Of a stretch of 5,891 nt of DNA, positions 415 through 5,891 are shown one piece after another. Numbering within the stretch: position 1 is the stretch's first letter; each line of letters opens with the position of its first letter. A model generated the notes under the pieces. That model was not told the DNA's origin. It searched no databases and saw only the letters and a program-made list of their open reading frames with translations. The position numbers and the translations under genes are program-made. The DNA comes from a plasmid: the NCBI RefSeq assembly GCF_054482525.1, contig NZ_JBTHVG010000008.1; one strand, given 5' to 3'.

Positions 415-761
415 CACAGAGTGACAGAGCTGGAAACACATTTGCTGAACGCCTTAGAGCAGCTGCAACAGGACTATATGCAGCGGCTGAGCGAATGGGA
501 GAGCGCCTTCGTGGAATTGCAGAAGATGTTTTCGCTTACGCAACGGGACAACGCGATGCTGAACGAGCGGGTCATGCAGTTGAGTCAGCAGGTGCAGCAC
601 TTGAGCGAGCAGACAGAACGCTTGAGCCAGTTATACAGCGAGAACTGGAGATAAGAGAGGAACGGTTGATGCAGGAGCGCGAACATGCGTTATCCCTGGA
701 ACGGGAGCGTCAGCTGGAAATACAGGAACGCACACTGGATGGCCCTTCGCTGGGATGGTGA
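3..761 (+). CDS. mbeA: Relaxase MbeA, C-terminal portion (continues from 5099..5891 across the window ends)
   Basis: I translated frame 3 codon by codon from nt 3 and found no stop until TGA at 759-761. The track reports only 300..761 because it begins at the first ATG. The single base left over at 5891 plus nt 1-2 completes one codon (gtc), so the two parts are in frame and sum to 517 aa. Confidence 0.8.
   Translation, partial: CQRGCDIKRDENQRRYSPVHSLDREIAGKTPGRGERGDDAAQEGRVKAGREYGHDVTGDSLSSVYREWRDALVSWRTDTDEPGRNQEAGRDIAETEREDMGRGVCAGREQEISGPSVREISRDDSLSGERVGTSEGVTQSDRAGNTFAERLRAAATGLYAAAERMGERLRGIAEDVFAYATGQRDAERAGHAVESAGAALERADRTLEPVIQRELEIREERLMQEREHALSLERERQLEIQERTLDGPSLGW
421..654 (+). 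CDS. mbeD: Mobilization / entry-exclusion protein MbeD-like, 77 aa
   Basis: GTG start at 421, directly after the mbeB stop and nested inside mbeA in a different frame. The product is a small glutamine/leucine-rich, probably coiled-coil protein (MTELETHLLNALEQLQQDY...). Position and size match the ColE1 mbeD arrangement as I recall it. Confidence 0.65.
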   Translation: MTELETHLLNALEQLQQDYMQRLSEWESAFVELQKMFSLTQRDNAMLNERVMQLSQQVQHLSEQTERLSQLYSENWR

Positions 762-988: not shown

Positions 989-1873
989 TTATCCGAAGAG
1001 CAATCCCCAAACACTTTTAGCTACAGAAACAATGGCTTTCTTGGCGACTTTAGCCACTGACGCTATTGGTTTAGGTAGTACGGTGTCTATTATATCATCA
1101 ATAGCTCTATCTACGGTGTCTGCGAACCCGTCCTTTGCCGTTTCTACAATTTCTTTTGTTTTTATTTCGTCTTTTACTTGATGCACCACTCCGCTCTGTG
1201 CTTCCTTTGGGAGCGATCTTACTATTGCCTCCACTAACCTTGAAATGTTATAACCTTCATTCGCAGATACAGATATAACGGGATGTTTGGTAAAACCGAA
1301 TCGTTCTATTAAGTATTCTTCCTTTTTTCTAATATTTATTTGTTGTGAGGGTGATGGTTGGTGTTTTTCTTCATCCCATTCGCGGAATGGCTCAATCTTG
1401 TCGACTTGGTTTAAAACAAACAACACTTTTTCATCACCACCAACTGGTTTTAAAACATTTTTATAAAAGTGCTCATCAGCTGAAAATGCTCGATCATCAC
1501 CTTTAACAACCCAAAGCACCAGATCTAATTCTGGGAGAAGATTTTTATACAACTCTTCATATTCTATATCTTTAGCTTCATTTTCACCTACACCTGGTAT
1601 ATCTATTATTTTAATTGTTCTATCACCAAATGAAATTATTAATTCCTGAACCTTTCTCGTGCATGCTTCTACATCACTCACTGCACATACATTACCTTTA
1701 AAGATAGAATTACATAGGCTGGATTTACCAGCGCCGGTTTTACCCATAATCCCTATTACTGGTTCGTAATTAATAACATTTCTAATTTTGTTATAGACAG
1801 ACTTGCGAATCTCTTTAGGTAGAACATCCACAGCTTCTTTGATTAATTTTATACCTTGCGTATTGTTTTCCAT
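989..1873 (-). CDS. P-loop GTPase of the YfjP/YkfA/YeeP (MMR_HSR1-like) family with C-terminal amphipathic tail, 294 aa from the MENNTQ start
   Basis: The track ORF is 989..1960 on the minus strand. I prefer the ATG at 1873 (MENNTQGIK...): it has a GAGGA about 11 nt upstream and avoids overlap with the upstream gene, which ends at 1909. Motifs read in the translation: G1 GIMGKTGAGKSS, G3 DIPG, G4 NQVD, G5 SVSA. Conserved blocks ELDLVLW, DEHFY and QPSPSQQ resemble the E. coli CP4-prophage GTPases YkfA/YfjP/YeeP as I recall them. The C-terminus (PKPIASVAKVAKKAIVSVAKSVWGLLFG) looks amphipathic. Confidence 0.8.
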   Translation of the reverse strand: MENNTQGIKLIKEAVDVLPKEIRKSVYNKIRNVINYEPVIGIMGKTGAGKSSLCNSIFKGNVCAVSDVEACTRKVQELIISFGDRTIKIIDIPGVGENEAKDIEYEELYKNLLPELDLVLWVVKGDDRAFSADEHFYKNVLKPVGGDEKVLFVLNQVDKIEPFREWDEEKHQPSPSQQINIRKKEEYLIERFGFTKHPVISVSANEGYNISRLVEAIVRSLPKEAQSGVVHQVKDEIKTKEIVETAKDGFADTVDRAIDDIIDTVLPKPIASVAKVAKKAIVSVAKSVWGLLFG

Positions 1874-1908
1874 AGTTACTATTTTCCTCATTTTGTTGTT
1901 CATATGAA

Positions 1909-2343
1909 TTAACGGAAGCTTGTTTTTCTTTCTTCTTTTTCTTCCCCGCATACAGAACATTTGTAATGGCGATAGGTATCAGAACTCCCACTAAGATACC
2001 AATTGTGTCTTTTACCATGAACTCGCTCTGTAAAACATCTCACGCATCTTTCTTTCACATTGCAATAATCATCGACTGCAATTTCAACAAATCTTTCATG
2101 CCTTTCGCCTTCTTGTTCAGCGCCACAGTCGATACACTTTTTTACAGTTGTGCACTTGAAATCGTATTTATAACTTTCCTCTCCGTATTTATGCTGTTCT
2201 TTTTGTATAGTGCGATTGCAGTCAGGGCATAGTTTAGAATATTTACAAGTCTCACCATCAATAAGCTTATAGTTTCCTCCGTGTATACCTACCCCACACT
2301 TAGCCTTGATTGCTGCATTTTTTATGCTATCCCAAAAGCCCAT
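1909..2343 (-). CDS. Cysteine-rich small protein (144 aa) with three tandem CX5CX2C motifs plus a terminal CX2C; putative multi-zinc-ribbon protein
   Basis: ATG at 2343 (minus strand) is preceded by GGGAGA at about 7 nt spacing. The translation has 12 Cys arranged as CKYSKLCPDC, CTTVKKCIDC, CNVKERCVRC and CSVC, spaced about 30 aa apart. It ends 35 nt before the GTPase start, so the two are probably co-transcribed. I recognise no family. Confidence 0.7.
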   Translation of the reverse strand: MGFWDSIKNAAIKAKCGVGIHGGNYKLIDGETCKYSKLCPDCNRTIQKEQHKYGEESYKYDFKCTTVKKCIDCGAEQEGERHERFVEIAVDDYCNVKERCVRCFTERVHGKRHNWYLSGSSDTYRHYKCSVCGEEKEERKTSFR

Positions 2344-2389
2344 GGAAAAATCTCCCTACGATTAGTTGATATAAGTTGAACAATTCATC

Positions 2390-2440
2390 GACATGATTAT
2401 ACACGTATAGTGTGTGGATATATAAAAATGAGTATGGATT
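2390..2440 (-). promoter_or_regulatory. Candidate sigma70 promoter for the Cys-rich/GTPase gene pair (perfect -10 TATAAT on the minus strand at 2396..2401)
   Basis: The minus strand reads ...acgtgTATAATcatgtcg... about 50 nt upstream of the 2343 start codon. The -35 region is AT-rich and weak (TATATA-like). This is an inferred position within a 227-bp AT-rich intergenic gap (2344..2570). Confidence 0.3.
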
Positions 2441-2570
2441 TATGCTCTGTATAATGTTTTTGTTATGTTAAATATAGCGCTGAAAAAGTGGGGGCACTGG
2501 ATAAACTTCGTGTTTTTCCCGCAAAGATAGTATTGGAAAGTCATTGTCTAATTCATCCAAGATAAATATT

Positions 2571-3383
2571 TTACGAATTTGTGAGTTTGCTTGAGATTTT
2601 TATATATTCAGCCTTTATTAACTCATTGCCATATTTTTTCTCGAGTCTTTTAACAATGAAATGACCTCGAGCCATATCTTGATAATAGTCGGTAAACATT
2701 GTGTTTAATGTGGCTCCAGTTAGTGCTCCAATAACGGGAACGACTTGAGCTGCCATTTTTTCCGTAATAACTATACCAAATCTTGTTGCAACTTTTTCTA
2801 TTAACGAAGCTAACCATTTTCCTGTTTGTACTGAAGATGCGTTTTTGACAGCAATGTTAGAAATTTCTTTGGATAAATCTTGTACGATCTCGGCAGTCAA
2901 ACTTCTTGTTGCATAGTATGCAGTATTAGCTGCATCATCGTCATCAGATGGTCCTCCCAAGGAAAACACCTCTAAGCAGGCCAGTTTGGTATCAATATTA
3001 TCTAGCTCAAAACCTTCACTTCTTGCTATGTCAGCAATTGAACGAAGCATAATTGTCGTTGAAACCGGTAACTCAATTGCTAATGCAGAAAAGCCAAAAG
3101 CGCCACCAATGGCTCCAGATACGGCCGCAAAGAATTTATTTGTCTTAGTTGATGCTATTCGGTTAGGTTCATTGTCTAGACTCCATAAGGCCGCATCAGC
3201 AGCTTTGTGGAGCGATTTTTCTACTAGACTATAAATTTGCTCTTCTGCCCCTTTGGGAAGTTTACTCATTAAGTAATCTATTGGGGTTCCAACTAATTGG
3301 GTTAATGTTTCAGTAATTGTATCTTGTTCTAATAATTCTACGGCCCTTTCTAAAGCCCGCAGATCTCCTTCTTCAAGATGCAT
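2571..3383 (-). CDS. EcsC-family-like protein (putative), 270 aa
   Basis: Long minus-strand ORF. Its ATG at 3383 is preceded by AAAGGA at about 9 nt. It has Gly/Ala-rich hydrophobic segments (AAVSGAIGGAFGFSALAIELPVSTTIMLRSIADIARSEGF and VVPVIGALTGATLNTMFTDYY) that I associate with EcsC-family proteins. That assignment is from memory and unverified. Confidence 0.6.
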   Translation of the reverse strand: MHLEEGDLRALERAVELLEQDTITETLTQLVGTPIDYLMSKLPKGAEEQIYSLVEKSLHKAADAALWSLDNEPNRIASTKTNKFFAAVSGAIGGAFGFSALAIELPVSTTIMLRSIADIARSEGFELDNIDTKLACLEVFSLGGPSDDDDAANTAYYATRSLTAEIVQDLSKEISNIAVKNASSVQTGKWLASLIEKVATRFGIVITEKMAAQVVPVIGALTGATLNTMFTDYYQDMARGHFIVKRLEKKYGNELIKAEYIKISSKLTNS

Positions 3384-3536: not shown

Positions 3537-3565
3537 TTGTGATCCTTTTTTTCTGCGCGTAATCT
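3537..3565 (+). promoter_or_regulatory. RNAII (primer) promoter: -35 TTGTGA (3537..3542), 17-bp spacer, -10 TAATCT (3560..3565)
   Basis: Positional and sequence equivalent of the pBR322/pMB1 RNAII promoter (TTGAGA - 17 bp - TAATCT). The transcription start is predicted at G3573. Confidence 0.7.
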
Positions 3566-3574
3566 GCTGCCTGT

Positions 3575-3682
3575 AAACAAAAAAACCACCGCTACCAACG
3601 GTGGTTTGTTTGCCGGATCAAGAGCTACCAACTCTTTTTCCGAAGGTAACTGGCTTGGTGGAGCACAGATACCAAATACTGT
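3575..3682 (-). ncRNA. RNAI antisense copy-number control RNA (about 108 nt)
   Basis: The minus strand beginning at 3682 reads acagtatttggtatctg..., the RNAI 5' end. It is complementary to the 5' end of RNAII. Its promoter (-35 TTGAAG, -10 CTACACT) lies at 3689..3718 on the minus strand. Confidence 0.85.
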
Positions 3683-3688
3683 CCTTCT

Positions 3689-3718
3689 AGTGTAGCCGCA
3701 GTTAGGCCACCACTTCAA
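3689..3718 (-). promoter_or_regulatory. RNAI promoter (-35 TTGAAG, -10 CTACACT on minus strand)
   Basis: The reverse complement of 3689..3718 reads ttgaagtggtggcctaactgcggctacact, matching the pBR322 RNAI promoter apart from one base in the spacer. Confidence 0.65.
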
Positions 3719-4119
3719 GAACTCTTAATATCTCAATCCACCTTGTCCAGTTACCAGTGGCTGCTGCCAGTGGCGCTTTGTCGTGTCTTACCGGGTTGGA
3801 CTCAAGACGATAGTTACCGGATAAGGCGCAGCGGTCGGGCTGAACGGGGGGTTCGTGCACACAGCCCAGCTTGGAGCGAACGACCTACACCGGGCCGAGA
3901 TACCAACAGCGTGAGCTATGAGAAAGCGCCACGCTTCCCGAAGGGAGAAAGGCGGACAGGTATCCGGTAAACGGCAGGGTCGGAACAGGAGAGCGCACGA
4001 GGGAGCCACCAGGGGGAAACGCCTGGTATCTTTATAGTCCTGTCGGGTTTCGCCACCTCTGACTTGAGCGTCGATTTTTGTGATGCTCGTCAGGGGGGCG
4101 GAGCCTATGGAAAAACGCC

Positions 4120-4140
4120 AGCGGCGCGGCCTTTCGTTGC
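4120..4140 (+). other. ColE1-type origin of replication (RNAII-to-DNA transition)
   Basis: The sequence aaaaacgccagcggcgcggcctttcgttgcc corresponds to the pBR322 ori switch region (aaaaacgccagcaacgcggcctttttacgg). Confidence 0.65.
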
Positions 4141-4529: not shown

Positions 4530-4721
4530 TCAGAGGTTTTCACCGTCATCCCCGAAGCGTGAGAGGCAGCTGCGGTAAAGCTCATCGGCGTGCTCGTGAA
4601 GCGATTCACAGATGTCTGCCTGTTCATCTGCGTCCAGTTCGTTGAGCTTCTCCAGCAGCGTTAATGTCTGGCTTCTGATAAAGCGGGCCATGTTAAGGGC
4701 GGTTTTTTCCTGTTTAGTCAC
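4530..4721 (-). CDS. rom: Rom/Rop, RNA-one modulator (63 aa)
   Basis: The translation MTKQEKTALNMARFIRSQTLTLLEKLNELDADEQADICESLHEHADELYRSCLSRFGDDGENL differs from pBR322 Rop, as I recall it, at only two residues. It has a GTG start with GGAGG upstream and is convergent with RNAII, as in pBR322. Confidence 0.9.
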   Translation of the reverse strand: MTKQEKTALNMARFIRSQTLTLLEKLNELDADEQADICESLHEHADELYRSCLSRFGDDGENL

Positions 4722-4761: not shown

Positions 4762-5109
4762 ATGATACCGATGAAACGCGAGAGGATGCTCACGATACGG
4801 GTTACTGATGATGAACATGCACGGTTACTGGAACGCTGTGAGGGTAAACAACTGGCGGTATGGATGCGGCGGGTCTGCCTGGGTGAGCCGGTTGCCCGTT
4901 CCGGGAAGCTGCCGACACTGGCACCGCCGTTACTGCGTCAGCTGGCTGCCATCGGGAATAACCTGAATCAGACGGCGAGGAAGGTGAACAGCGGGCAGTG
5001 GTCTTCCGGTGACCGGGTTCAGGTGGTGGCCGCACTGATGGCCATCGAGAGAGAGTTGCGCAGCTTACGGCAGGTCGTCAGGGAACAGGGAGCGCGGGAT
5101 GATAGTTAA
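4762..5109 (+). CDS. mbeC: Mobilization accessory protein MbeC (MobC family); start codon uncertain among 4762, 4771 and 4786
   Basis: The track ORF begins MIPMKRERMLTIRVTDDEHARLLERCEGKQLAVWMRR..., which is the reading frame whose first 30-odd codons survive as the mob remnant in pBR322. The stop at 5107-5109 overlaps the mbeA start. A start at 4786 would give the 107 aa I recall for ColE1 MbeC. Confidence 0.8.
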   Translation: MIPMKRERMLTIRVTDDEHARLLERCEGKQLAVWMRRVCLGEPVARSGKLPTLAPPLLRQLAAIGNNLNQTARKVNSGQWSSGDRVQVVAALMAIERELRSLRQVVREQGARDDS

Positions 5110-5891
5110 ATTTCATGCCAGGGGAAAAGGCGGTGGCAGTGGTCCGGTTGATTACCTGCTGGGAAGGGAGCGTAACCGGGAAGGGGCAACGGTGCTTCAG
5201 GGTAATCCGGAAGAAGTCCGGGAACTCATCGATGCCACGCCATTTGCGAAGAAATACACGTCAGGTGTTCTGTCGTTCGCGGAGAAGGAACTGCCGCCGG
5301 GAGGACGTGAAAAAGTGATGGCGAGCTTTGAGCGTGTACTGATGCCCGGTCTCGAAAAAAATCAGTACAGCATCCTGTGGGTTGAGCACCAGGACAAGGG
5401 ACGGCTTGAGCTGAATTTTGTCATTCCGAACATGGAGCTACAGAGCGGAAAACGCCTCCAGCCGTACTATGACCGCGCAGACAGGCCGAGAATTGATGCC
5501 TGGCAGACGCTGGTGAATCACCATTACGGGCTGCATGACCCGAATGCCCCGGAGAACCGCAGGACGCTGACACTCCCTGATAACCTGCCGGAAACGAAAC
5601 AGGCGATTGCTGAGAGCGTTACACGGGGGCTTGATGTGCTTTACCGTACCGGAGAGATAAAAGACCGTCAGGATGTGATTCAGGCACTCACAGATGTGGG
5701 AGTTGAGGTTGTCAGGGTGACGCGAAGCAGTATCAGCATTGCAGACCCGAACGGCGGAAGGAATATCAGGCTGAAAGGAGCATTTTATGAGCAATCTTTT
5801 ACAGACGGGCGCGGAGTTCGAGAAAAAGCTGAAAGAGAGAGCCGAATCTACAGAGAAAATGCTGAACGACGAGTTCAGGAAGCTCGGCGAG
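5099..5891 (+). CDS. mbeA: Relaxase MbeA (MOB-HEN / MOBP5 type), N-terminal portion, 3' partial at window edge
   Basis: This ORF is absent from the supplied track because it has no stop inside the window. I translated by hand from ATG 5099 in frame 2 and found no stop through 5891. The product begins MIVKFHARGKGGGSGPVDYLL (catalytic Tyr19 context) and contains the HEN signature in WVEHQDKGRLELNFVIPN. It overlaps the mbeC stop by 11 nt. Confidence 0.9.
   Translation, partial: MIVKFHARGKGGGSGPVDYLLGRERNREGATVLQGNPEEVRELIDATPFAKKYTSGVLSFAEKELPPGGREKVMASFERVLMPGLEKNQYSILWVEHQDKGRLELNFVIPNMELQSGKRLQPYYDRADRPRIDAWQTLVNHHYGLHDPNAPENRRTLTLPDNLPETKQAIAESVTRGLDVLYRTGEIKDRQDVIQALTDVGVEVVRVTRSSISIADPNGGRNIRLKGAFYEQSFTDGRGVREKAERESRIYRENAERRVQEARR
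5787..5891 (+). CDS. mbeB: MbeB, 5' portion (35 codons), nested in mbeA in the +1 frame; continues at 1..414
   Basis: ATG at 5787 is preceded by AAGGAG at 8-nt spacing. Frame 3 is open from there to the window end with the last codon complete at 5889-5891, so it joins frame 1 at nt 1 without a shift. Confidence 0.7.
   Translation, partial: MSNLLQTGAEFEKKLKERAESTEKMLNDEFRKLGE

Follow-up and report, generated by a model that had tools for sequence, protein, structure and literature searches.

The RNAI gene of the 5,891-nt plasmid sequence analysed here (the window, meaning the whole stretch at its full length) has CCACCA in the loop of its 5' hairpin, where ColE1 has CUGCUGA, and the RNAII primer of the same plasmid carries a matching replacement downstream. 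The feature is an ordinary member of a textbook system and not a new kind of system: a ColE1-family RNAI/RNAII module with an alternative loop I and a matching beta block, which probably gives the plasmid a distinct, or at least a weakened, incompatibility with ColE1 and pMB1.

The segment singled out in the earlier note, 3575-3682, is by ColE1 homology exactly the 108-nt RNAI on the minus strand, and it is a bona fide RNAI of a ColE1-type replicon. Rfam agrees: the RF00106 match at 3680..3577 (-) takes in all 102 model positions (1-102) and scores 68.6 bits, above the gathering score of 47 (E = 1.7e-11). RNAI lies antisense to the first ~110 nt of an RNAII pre-primer of ~550 nt that runs into the conserved oriV, the transcript ends being placed by homology. 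In the predicted fold a 9-nt single-stranded 5' tail is followed by three hairpins; the minimum free energy (MFE) and centroid structures are identical, and the MFE of -43 kcal/mol (z = -4.64) was equalled by 0 of 200 shuffles. A scan also found a terminator-like site at 3607..3583 (-). A second Rfam candidate, STnc240 (27.7 bits against 55, E = 0.59), was dismissed as a chance overlap with the RNAI terminator hairpin. RNAI is unannotated in every record seen. We number the 5' hairpin as I; it is 'III' in the Tomizawa/Chaillou scheme. The coordinates of these and the other features are collected in Table 1.

Table 1. Features of the replicon and of selected genes in the window (positions count from the first letter of the window)
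Feature	Position	Strand	Details	Basis
RNAII promoter	3537..3565	+	-35 TTGTGA (3537-3542), 17-nt spacer, -10 TAATCT (3560-3565)	homology
RNAII pre-primer	3573..4127	+	5' end is the G of GUAAAC; 3' limit (4127) approximate	5' end and origin end by ColE1 homology
RNAI	3575..3682	-	108-nt antisense copy-number regulator	ColE1 homology and Rfam RF00106
RNAI hairpin III and U-run (intrinsic terminator)	3577..3613	-	loop UUGGUAG at 3592-3598	
RNAI hairpin II	3614..3642	-	loop UUGGUAG at 3625-3631	alignments and fold
RNAI 5' hairpin (hairpin I)	3645..3673	-	loop CCACCA at 3656-3661; bulged U at 3665 (C in ColE1/pMB1)	alignments, fold, Rfam consensus structure
RNAII 'alpha' arm	3645..3662	+	GGUAACUGGCUUGGUGGA; 5' half and loop of RNAII stem-loop III; core GGUGGA at 3657-3662	
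RNAI promoter	3689..3718	-	-35 TTGAAG (3713-3718), 18-nt spacer, -10 TACACT (3689-3694)	homology
RNAII 'beta' block	3726..3750	+	UAAUAUCUCAAUCCACCUUGUCCAG; wholesale replacement relative to ColE1/pMB1; core UCCACC at 3737-3742	
rom/rop	4530..4721	-	63-aa RNA-one modulator	Pfam PF01815 Rop, E = 1.6e-37
Small GTPase	989-1873	-	MMR_HSR1 and dynamin-like	
Cys-rich 144-aa protein	1909-2343	-	no match in Pfam or PADLOC	
EcsC-family protein	2571-3383	-		PF12787, E = 1.3e-31

The window was aligned with authentic ColE1 (NC_001371), with sequences of the pMB1 and p15A types and with several natural plasmids. Relative to ColE1 RNAI, all differences are confined to the loop and the bulge of the 5' hairpin: the 7-nt loop CUGCUGA becomes the 6-nt CCACCA through five substitutions and a 1-nt deletion, and the C-to-U change at 3665 affects an unpaired bulge base (C18 in ColE1 RNAI). 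There are no compensatory stem pairs among the hairpin I changes. The claim in the earlier note that RNAI/RNAII depart from pMB1 in the first stem-loop is thus borne out, and the folding of RNAI that it proposed places the substitutions in the kissing loop and the bulge and not in compensatory pairs. Both window strings that it quoted are present, and the pBR322 strings that it gave are real, a 131-nt pMB1-type sequence being a 100% match to vector-derived records. The further change that it assigned to the second loop (accgTtgg; accgttggtagcgg, accgTtggtagcgg) sits in the loop of the third hairpin and is the normal ColE1 state. Loop II, UUGGUAG, is the same in the window, ColE1, the pMB1-type and the p15A-type sequences. 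The first base of loop III, RNAI nt 85 at window position 3598, is U in the window and in ColE1 and C in pMB1; because the T at 3598 is identical to that of NC_001371, it is merely the base that separates ColE1 from pMB1. The earlier observation thus holds in substance, apart from one mislabelled hairpin.

Over its whole length, RNAII promoter and origin included, the 651-bp ori region can be aligned closely to ColE1 except in two replaced blocks, the first of which is the RNAI loop. ColE1 and the pMB1-type sequence both have the window's RNAI hexamers TTGAAG and TACACT and its RNAII -10 hexamer TAATCT, and the RNAII -35 hexamer reads TTGTGA in the window against TTGAGA in the aligned ColE1 stretch. 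We take these hexamers to correspond to the mapped RNAI and RNAII promoters of ColE1/pBR322, and the conservation of the RNAI pair suggests that this promoter is functional. A simple sigma-70 consensus scan called neither promoter; the RNAI promoter reached 8 of 12, where 9 were required.

The second replaced block, which the earlier note did not mention, lies in RNAII at 3726-3750 (+), about 75 nt downstream of the loop. In the whole-ori alignment, ColE1 CAUCGCUCUGCUAAUCCGG is replaced by CUCAAUCCACCUUGUCCAG in the window, which is 13 nt shorter. The alpha arm of RNAII is complementary to the RNAI loop, and in the MFE fold of RNAII nt 1-215 it pairs with 3737-3755, so that the UCCACC core of the beta block pairs with the GGUGGA core of the alpha arm; in ColE1/pMB1 the counterpart CGCUCUGCU pairs with AGCAGAGCG. 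The window's alpha-beta core is only 6 bp long, a length attained in 502 of 20,000 shuffles, and by itself has only weak significance.

Different origins were compared to see whether the coupling holds generally. One genome per species was scanned for the conserved RNAI -35 region, and the natural origins were then extracted. The survey yielded 48 loci, of which about 30 had a ColE1-type origin, many of these being vector contamination; the others were chance matches to unrelated sequence. Six loop classes, including the p15A type, were distinguished (CUGCUGA, CCACCA, UCGCACA, CCGUGAA, UCGUACA and CCUCCA), each with its own complementary block. Loop/beta matching was judged by the length of exact Watson-Crick complements and by whole-RNAII folds. 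For the six classes in the order given, the longest exact complements between loop and own block were 9, 6, 9, 10, 8 and 6 nt, the cognate pair was always the row maximum, and the true assignment of blocks to loops was the unique best of 720 permutations. An alpha/beta duplex-energy matrix had also been computed and was set aside as ambiguous, because G-U pairs permit out-of-register pairing (window alpha with ColE1 beta, -12.4; cognate, -10.7). In MFE folds of RNAII 1-215, the alpha-beta helix formed in 17 of 18 oris from five natural loop classes, the sole exception being a metagenome-assembled (MAG) contig whose loop and beta block belong to different classes. The beta blocks of different classes differ by indels, so that an alignment bringing their pairs into register would already be fitted to the structure. 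Since each loop is accompanied by its matching beta block, the loop allele belongs to a cassette of two pieces and is not a handful of drifting point mutations. The modelled loop/beta pairing is consistent with the long-range alpha-beta helix of RNAII (structure IV), which, according to Masukata and Tomizawa in 1986, is reportedly needed for primer maturation when RNAI is absent.

The exceptional contig, RFQK01000327.1 (Methylococcaceae MAG, 1,770 bp), combines a CUGCUGA loop with a UCGCACA-class beta block, and the predicted alpha-beta helix is missing from its RNAII fold. It is the only mismatched ColE1-like origin that we found. The contig, probably a chimera of metagenome assembly or else a contaminant, provides a natural negative control. 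Identical pMB1-type origins also turned up in unrelated assemblies (a Nitrospira MAG, Streptomyces, Pseudoalteromonas, Methylobacterium, Pseudoflavonifractor and others). Just upstream of RNAI these have CTAGAAGAACAG, which we take to be the pUC-type G-to-A change, and they are almost certainly cloning-vector contamination.

RNAI acts through kissing contacts of its loops with those of nascent RNAII, after which a duplex forms starting at the 5' tail; Rop stabilises the kissing complex (PMC8683028; PMC9458437). By pairing rules, loop I of the window's RNAI makes no more than 1 contiguous Watson-Crick pair with the RNAII loop of ColE1/pMB1, whereas its own RNAII loop allows 6 of 6. Loop II pairs 7/7 with ColE1 and pMB1, and loop III 7/7 with ColE1 and 6/7 with pMB1. 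Identity or cross-complementarity with ColE1/pMB1 at all three RNAI loops is thus not found, loop I being the one that breaks it. If RNAI of this plasmid works as in other members of the family, by loop-loop kissing with nascent RNAII and then zippering from the 5' tail, the complementarity lost at one of three loops would slow its binding to ColE1/pMB1 RNAII, and the plasmid would have a distinct or at least weakened incompatibility with those replicons. Rom would still stabilise the cognate complex and keep copy number moderate. The matching UCCACC replacement in RNAII preserves the predicted alpha-beta helix for the new loop allele. The proposal in the earlier note that the loop changes alter kissing specificity, and with it incompatibility, is plausible to this extent, a genuine kissing-loop change being present, but two loops still match ColE1. 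Because these two loops and the 5' tail are identical to those of ColE1, some cross-inhibition is to be expected. The full heterologous duplex has a predicted energy of -195 kcal/mol compared with -212 kcal/mol for the cognate one; since the heterologous duplex is still very stable, any discrimination must be kinetic.

Natural co-residence bears on the question of compatibility, which the earlier note had raised by suggesting that the plasmid may coexist with pMB1 or ColE1 replicons. Escherichia coli U90 (GCF_016696665.1) holds pU90-2, a colicin E1 plasmid with an IS66 insertion and a ColE1-type RNAI, together with pU90-3, a 5.6-kb EcoRI restriction-modification (R-M) plasmid whose RNAI differs from that of ColE1 only by the CCACCA loop. 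In E. coli LR-71-1 (GCF_036498465.1), pLR-71-1_6 has an RNAI stretch identical to that of the window and resides with pLR-71-1_5 (9 kb, tet(A), rop), which combines the loop I CCGUGAA and a beta block to match it with loops II and III identical to the window's and small stem differences; a third ColE1-like plasmid of this strain, pLR-71-1_7, is fully divergent. As assemblies and not segregation tests, the U90 and LR-71-1 pairs speak for the coexistence of replicons whose difference lies essentially in the 5' loop alone. They are not proof, and loop divergence alone does not predict compatibility (PMC9458437). In a clean test, stable compatibility with ColE1/pMB1 replicons seems to us a little likelier than its failure. 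In ETEC1738 a window-type plasmid is found with a partner whose RNAI is fully divergent, which is the expected situation. Accessions neighbouring those of STEC711, SCU-301 and TW14425 proved to be an IncFII plasmid, another strain's chromosome and a 124-kb plasmid, and gave no further co-resident pair. Salmonella CP100735 and CP100742, considered as a pair, were rejected, as they belong to different strains.

Two observations were made on these strains in passing. The record of pU90-2 (NZ_CP068037.1) is assembled as an 18.7-kb head-to-tail dimer with origins at 8450-9170 and 17795-18520. Of the two origin copies one is ColE1-type and the other CCACCA-type; within the origin region nothing but the RNAI loop and the RNAII beta block tells them apart, and ColE1-specific SNPs between the two blocks are kept in both; the dimer may be a real recombinant or heterodimer, or a polishing or assembly artefact from co-resident pU90-3. 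In ETEC1738, the 5.7-kb ColE1-like plasmid unnamed6 has an Rfam sraL match (RF01408, 84.7 bits) at 496-629 (-). SraL is an Hfq-binding sRNA that is normally described as chromosomal, and its location on a plasmid was unexpected.

The possibility has to be weighed that the loop I allele is near-neutral, the window RNAI capturing ColE1/pMB1 RNAII efficiently so that all three plasmids fall in the same incompatibility group. Co-residence would then reflect selection, addiction genes or transient carriage, and the partners found do bear colicin E1 and its immunity, EcoRI R-M or tet(A), any of which could maintain an unstable pair. The full pairing of loops II and III with ColE1, the stability of the heterologous duplex and the matching stems and 5' tail all fit such an allele, and directed evolution has shown loop sequence divergence to be an unreliable predictor of compatibility, which may moreover be directional (PMC9458437, Chaillou et al.). 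Co-occurrence in assemblies has its own pitfall: Klebsiella pneumoniae Z0117KP0042 has two window-like oris with the same RNAI minus one T of the terminator U-run (NZ_CP098124.1, NZ_CP098125.1), one in a free 9.25-kb plasmid and the other beside IS5 in a 204-kb IncFII conjugative plasmid. The arrangement suggests IS-mediated cointegration of a small Col plasmid. Since one of its oris is embedded in the IncFII plasmid, this pair is uninformative on compatibility, and since identical RNAIs can co-occur by way of a cointegrate, assemblies alone are no proof of it. Against near-neutrality, however, stand the two independent isolates with pairs that differ essentially only in loop I. In addition, p15A shares loop II with ColE1 yet forms an experimentally established separate incompatibility group (PMC9458437), and loop I with the beta block is a diversified cassette of at least six alleles, as diversifying selection on specificity would give. 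We regard a near-neutral allele as the less probable case, though one with a substantial chance of being right.

That the differences are sequencing or assembly errors, or mark a decaying, non-functional origin, is extremely improbable. The plasmid does come from the assembly of a single environmental isolate, and nothing else of substance speaks for an error. In PLSDB, 8 records, each a plasmid of Klebsiella, Salmonella or E. coli about 5.88-5.89 kb in size, have exactly the same 110-nt RNAI stretch, as do 13 records of complete E. coli genomes; together they span several countries, hosts and genera. The Rfam score clearly exceeds the threshold, the fold is intact and the beta block matches; Rop, MobC and the full-length 517-aa MbeA are intact as well. 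As independent identical records exist, the explanation by error or artefact is rejected.

The CCACCA cassette is not tied to one RNAI background. Loop and beta block occur with ColE1-type hairpins II/III in pECO29, pFUJ80155-3, pU90-3, FWSEC0001 unnamed7 and pR18.1932_5.4k, and with quite different hairpins II/III in contigs of Pantoea stewartii and Erwinia endophytica and in one contig labelled 'Pseudomonas'. Conversely, ColE1-type hairpins II/III are joined to three cassettes, those of ColE1, the window and pLR-71-1_5. Because cassettes and hairpin II/III modules are variously combined, the RNAI gene looks mosaic. From the finding of the CCACCA and ColE1-type cassettes each with different hairpin II/III modules, and from the at least six cassette alleles, one might propose that loop I together with the beta block acts as a specificity cassette of two parts, portable and shuffled by recombination among ColE1-like replicons independently of hairpins II/III; we put this forward tentatively, with slightly less than even confidence. 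If it is true, a single-loop change suffices for natural coexistence, and ColE1 incompatibility types are combinatorial and not lineage-bound.

Among known systems, ColE1 (NC_001371) has the window's architecture and a near-identical sequence. It shares with the window the 5' tail, all stems, loops II and III including U85, the RNAI promoter hexamers, rom and the MbeA/B/D-MobC mobilisation genes, and differs in the 7-nt loop I, the C at the bulge and the beta block, which is 13 nt shorter in the window. The RNAI of pMB1/pBR322/pUC resembles that of the window as ColE1's does, with an identical loop II, and differs in loop I, the beta block and the base that opens loop III, the single one known to distinguish ColE1 from pMB1. 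Plasmid pECO29 (NC_001537, Eco29kI R-M) and the other CCACCA plasmids have the window's loop, a GGTGGA-containing beta block and ColE1-type loops II/III, and pR18.1932_5.4k has the bulge U too. In some of these plasmids the lower stem of hairpin II has 1-nt insertions, or the bulge base is C; the CCACCA plasmids carry R-M systems as cargo where the window has an EcsC/GTPase cassette. Like the window, p15A has a 6-nt loop I (CCUCCA, one base from CCACCA) and the same loop II, with its own matching beta block (GAGGAG:CUCCUC), but its loop III is different, as are several of its stems and the region of the RNAI promoter. The engineered colE1-compatible origins of Chaillou et al. 2022 (PMC9458437) have altered RNAI loops and retained stems, as the window does; their loops, however, were randomised without a designed downstream change in RNAII, whereas the window allele has a compensating beta block.

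E. coli, Salmonella and Klebsiella commonly harbour small mobilisable ColE1-like plasmids, and RNAI specificity determines which of these can live together in one cell. Public databases already contain this plasmid and its RNAI allele, and the mechanism is known; the addition made here, the loop/beta-block cassette and its apparent shuffling, is modest, and the accepted model of ColE1 control is unchanged. Replicon typing is refined when CCACCA is treated as a loop I type of its own that goes with ColE1-type loops II/III, and recognising this type helps to explain strains with multiple Col plasmids. The origin is a natural candidate for an origin compatible with pMB1 vectors. The loop/beta coupling also amounts to a design rule, in that engineering the loop of the 5' hairpin without changing RNAII should damage primer folding.

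As to the plasmid itself, the window is, on the sequence evidence, apparently the entire circular plasmid pMV-v4-SK2-O-b (NZ_CP085865.1, 5,891 bp) of K. pneumoniae MV-v4-SK2-O, isolated from an environmental swab in a Swiss veterinary clinic. The 651-bp ori is 100% identical in the two, and an intact mbeA (517 aa) spans the window ends (5099-5891 plus 1-761); since mbeA crosses the junction, the window is a complete circle cut within the relaxase gene. In PLSDB, pOXA-48 is the sole other plasmid of this strain, and mbeA is missing from the gene table for the plasmid record. The 651-bp query matched more than 5,000 ColE1-like records, and MOB-suite typing in PLSDB places both the plasmid and ColE1 in rep_cluster_2350. 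It is a typical mobilisable ColE1-like plasmid, with a backbone of the RNAI/RNAII origin, rop, mobC, mbeB/mbeD and full-length mbeA and an AT-rich three-gene cargo. The rop gene, downstream of the origin, is intact, its product matching PF01815 over the full 57-position model (residues 1-57), and PGAP labels the product 'Rop family plasmid primer RNA-binding protein'. Rom is therefore retained, as the earlier note had said, and a moderate copy number is a reasonable expectation. PGAP also calls a 52-aa 'replication initiation protein' (WP_071529495.1) within RNAII/ori at window 3702-3860 (-), record 332-490, a label that recurs on ColE1 and many other relatives. Because ColE1-type replicons require no plasmid-encoded initiator, this ORF is probably a spurious call over the primer RNA.

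The cargo, 989-3383 (-), has a GC content of 0.37 against 0.51-0.56 for the backbone. Its PADLOC matches are weak (PDC-S29, 2.7e-10; LeoBC/LeoA, 1e-11 and 4e-9), and it may be an uncharacterised defence-like or membrane-stress cassette. The same trio of proteins is encoded on the Salmonella plasmid pR18.0292_5.9k (5,892 bp), and the remaining E. coli plasmids of about 5.9 kb with the exact RNAI probably carry the same three cargo proteins.
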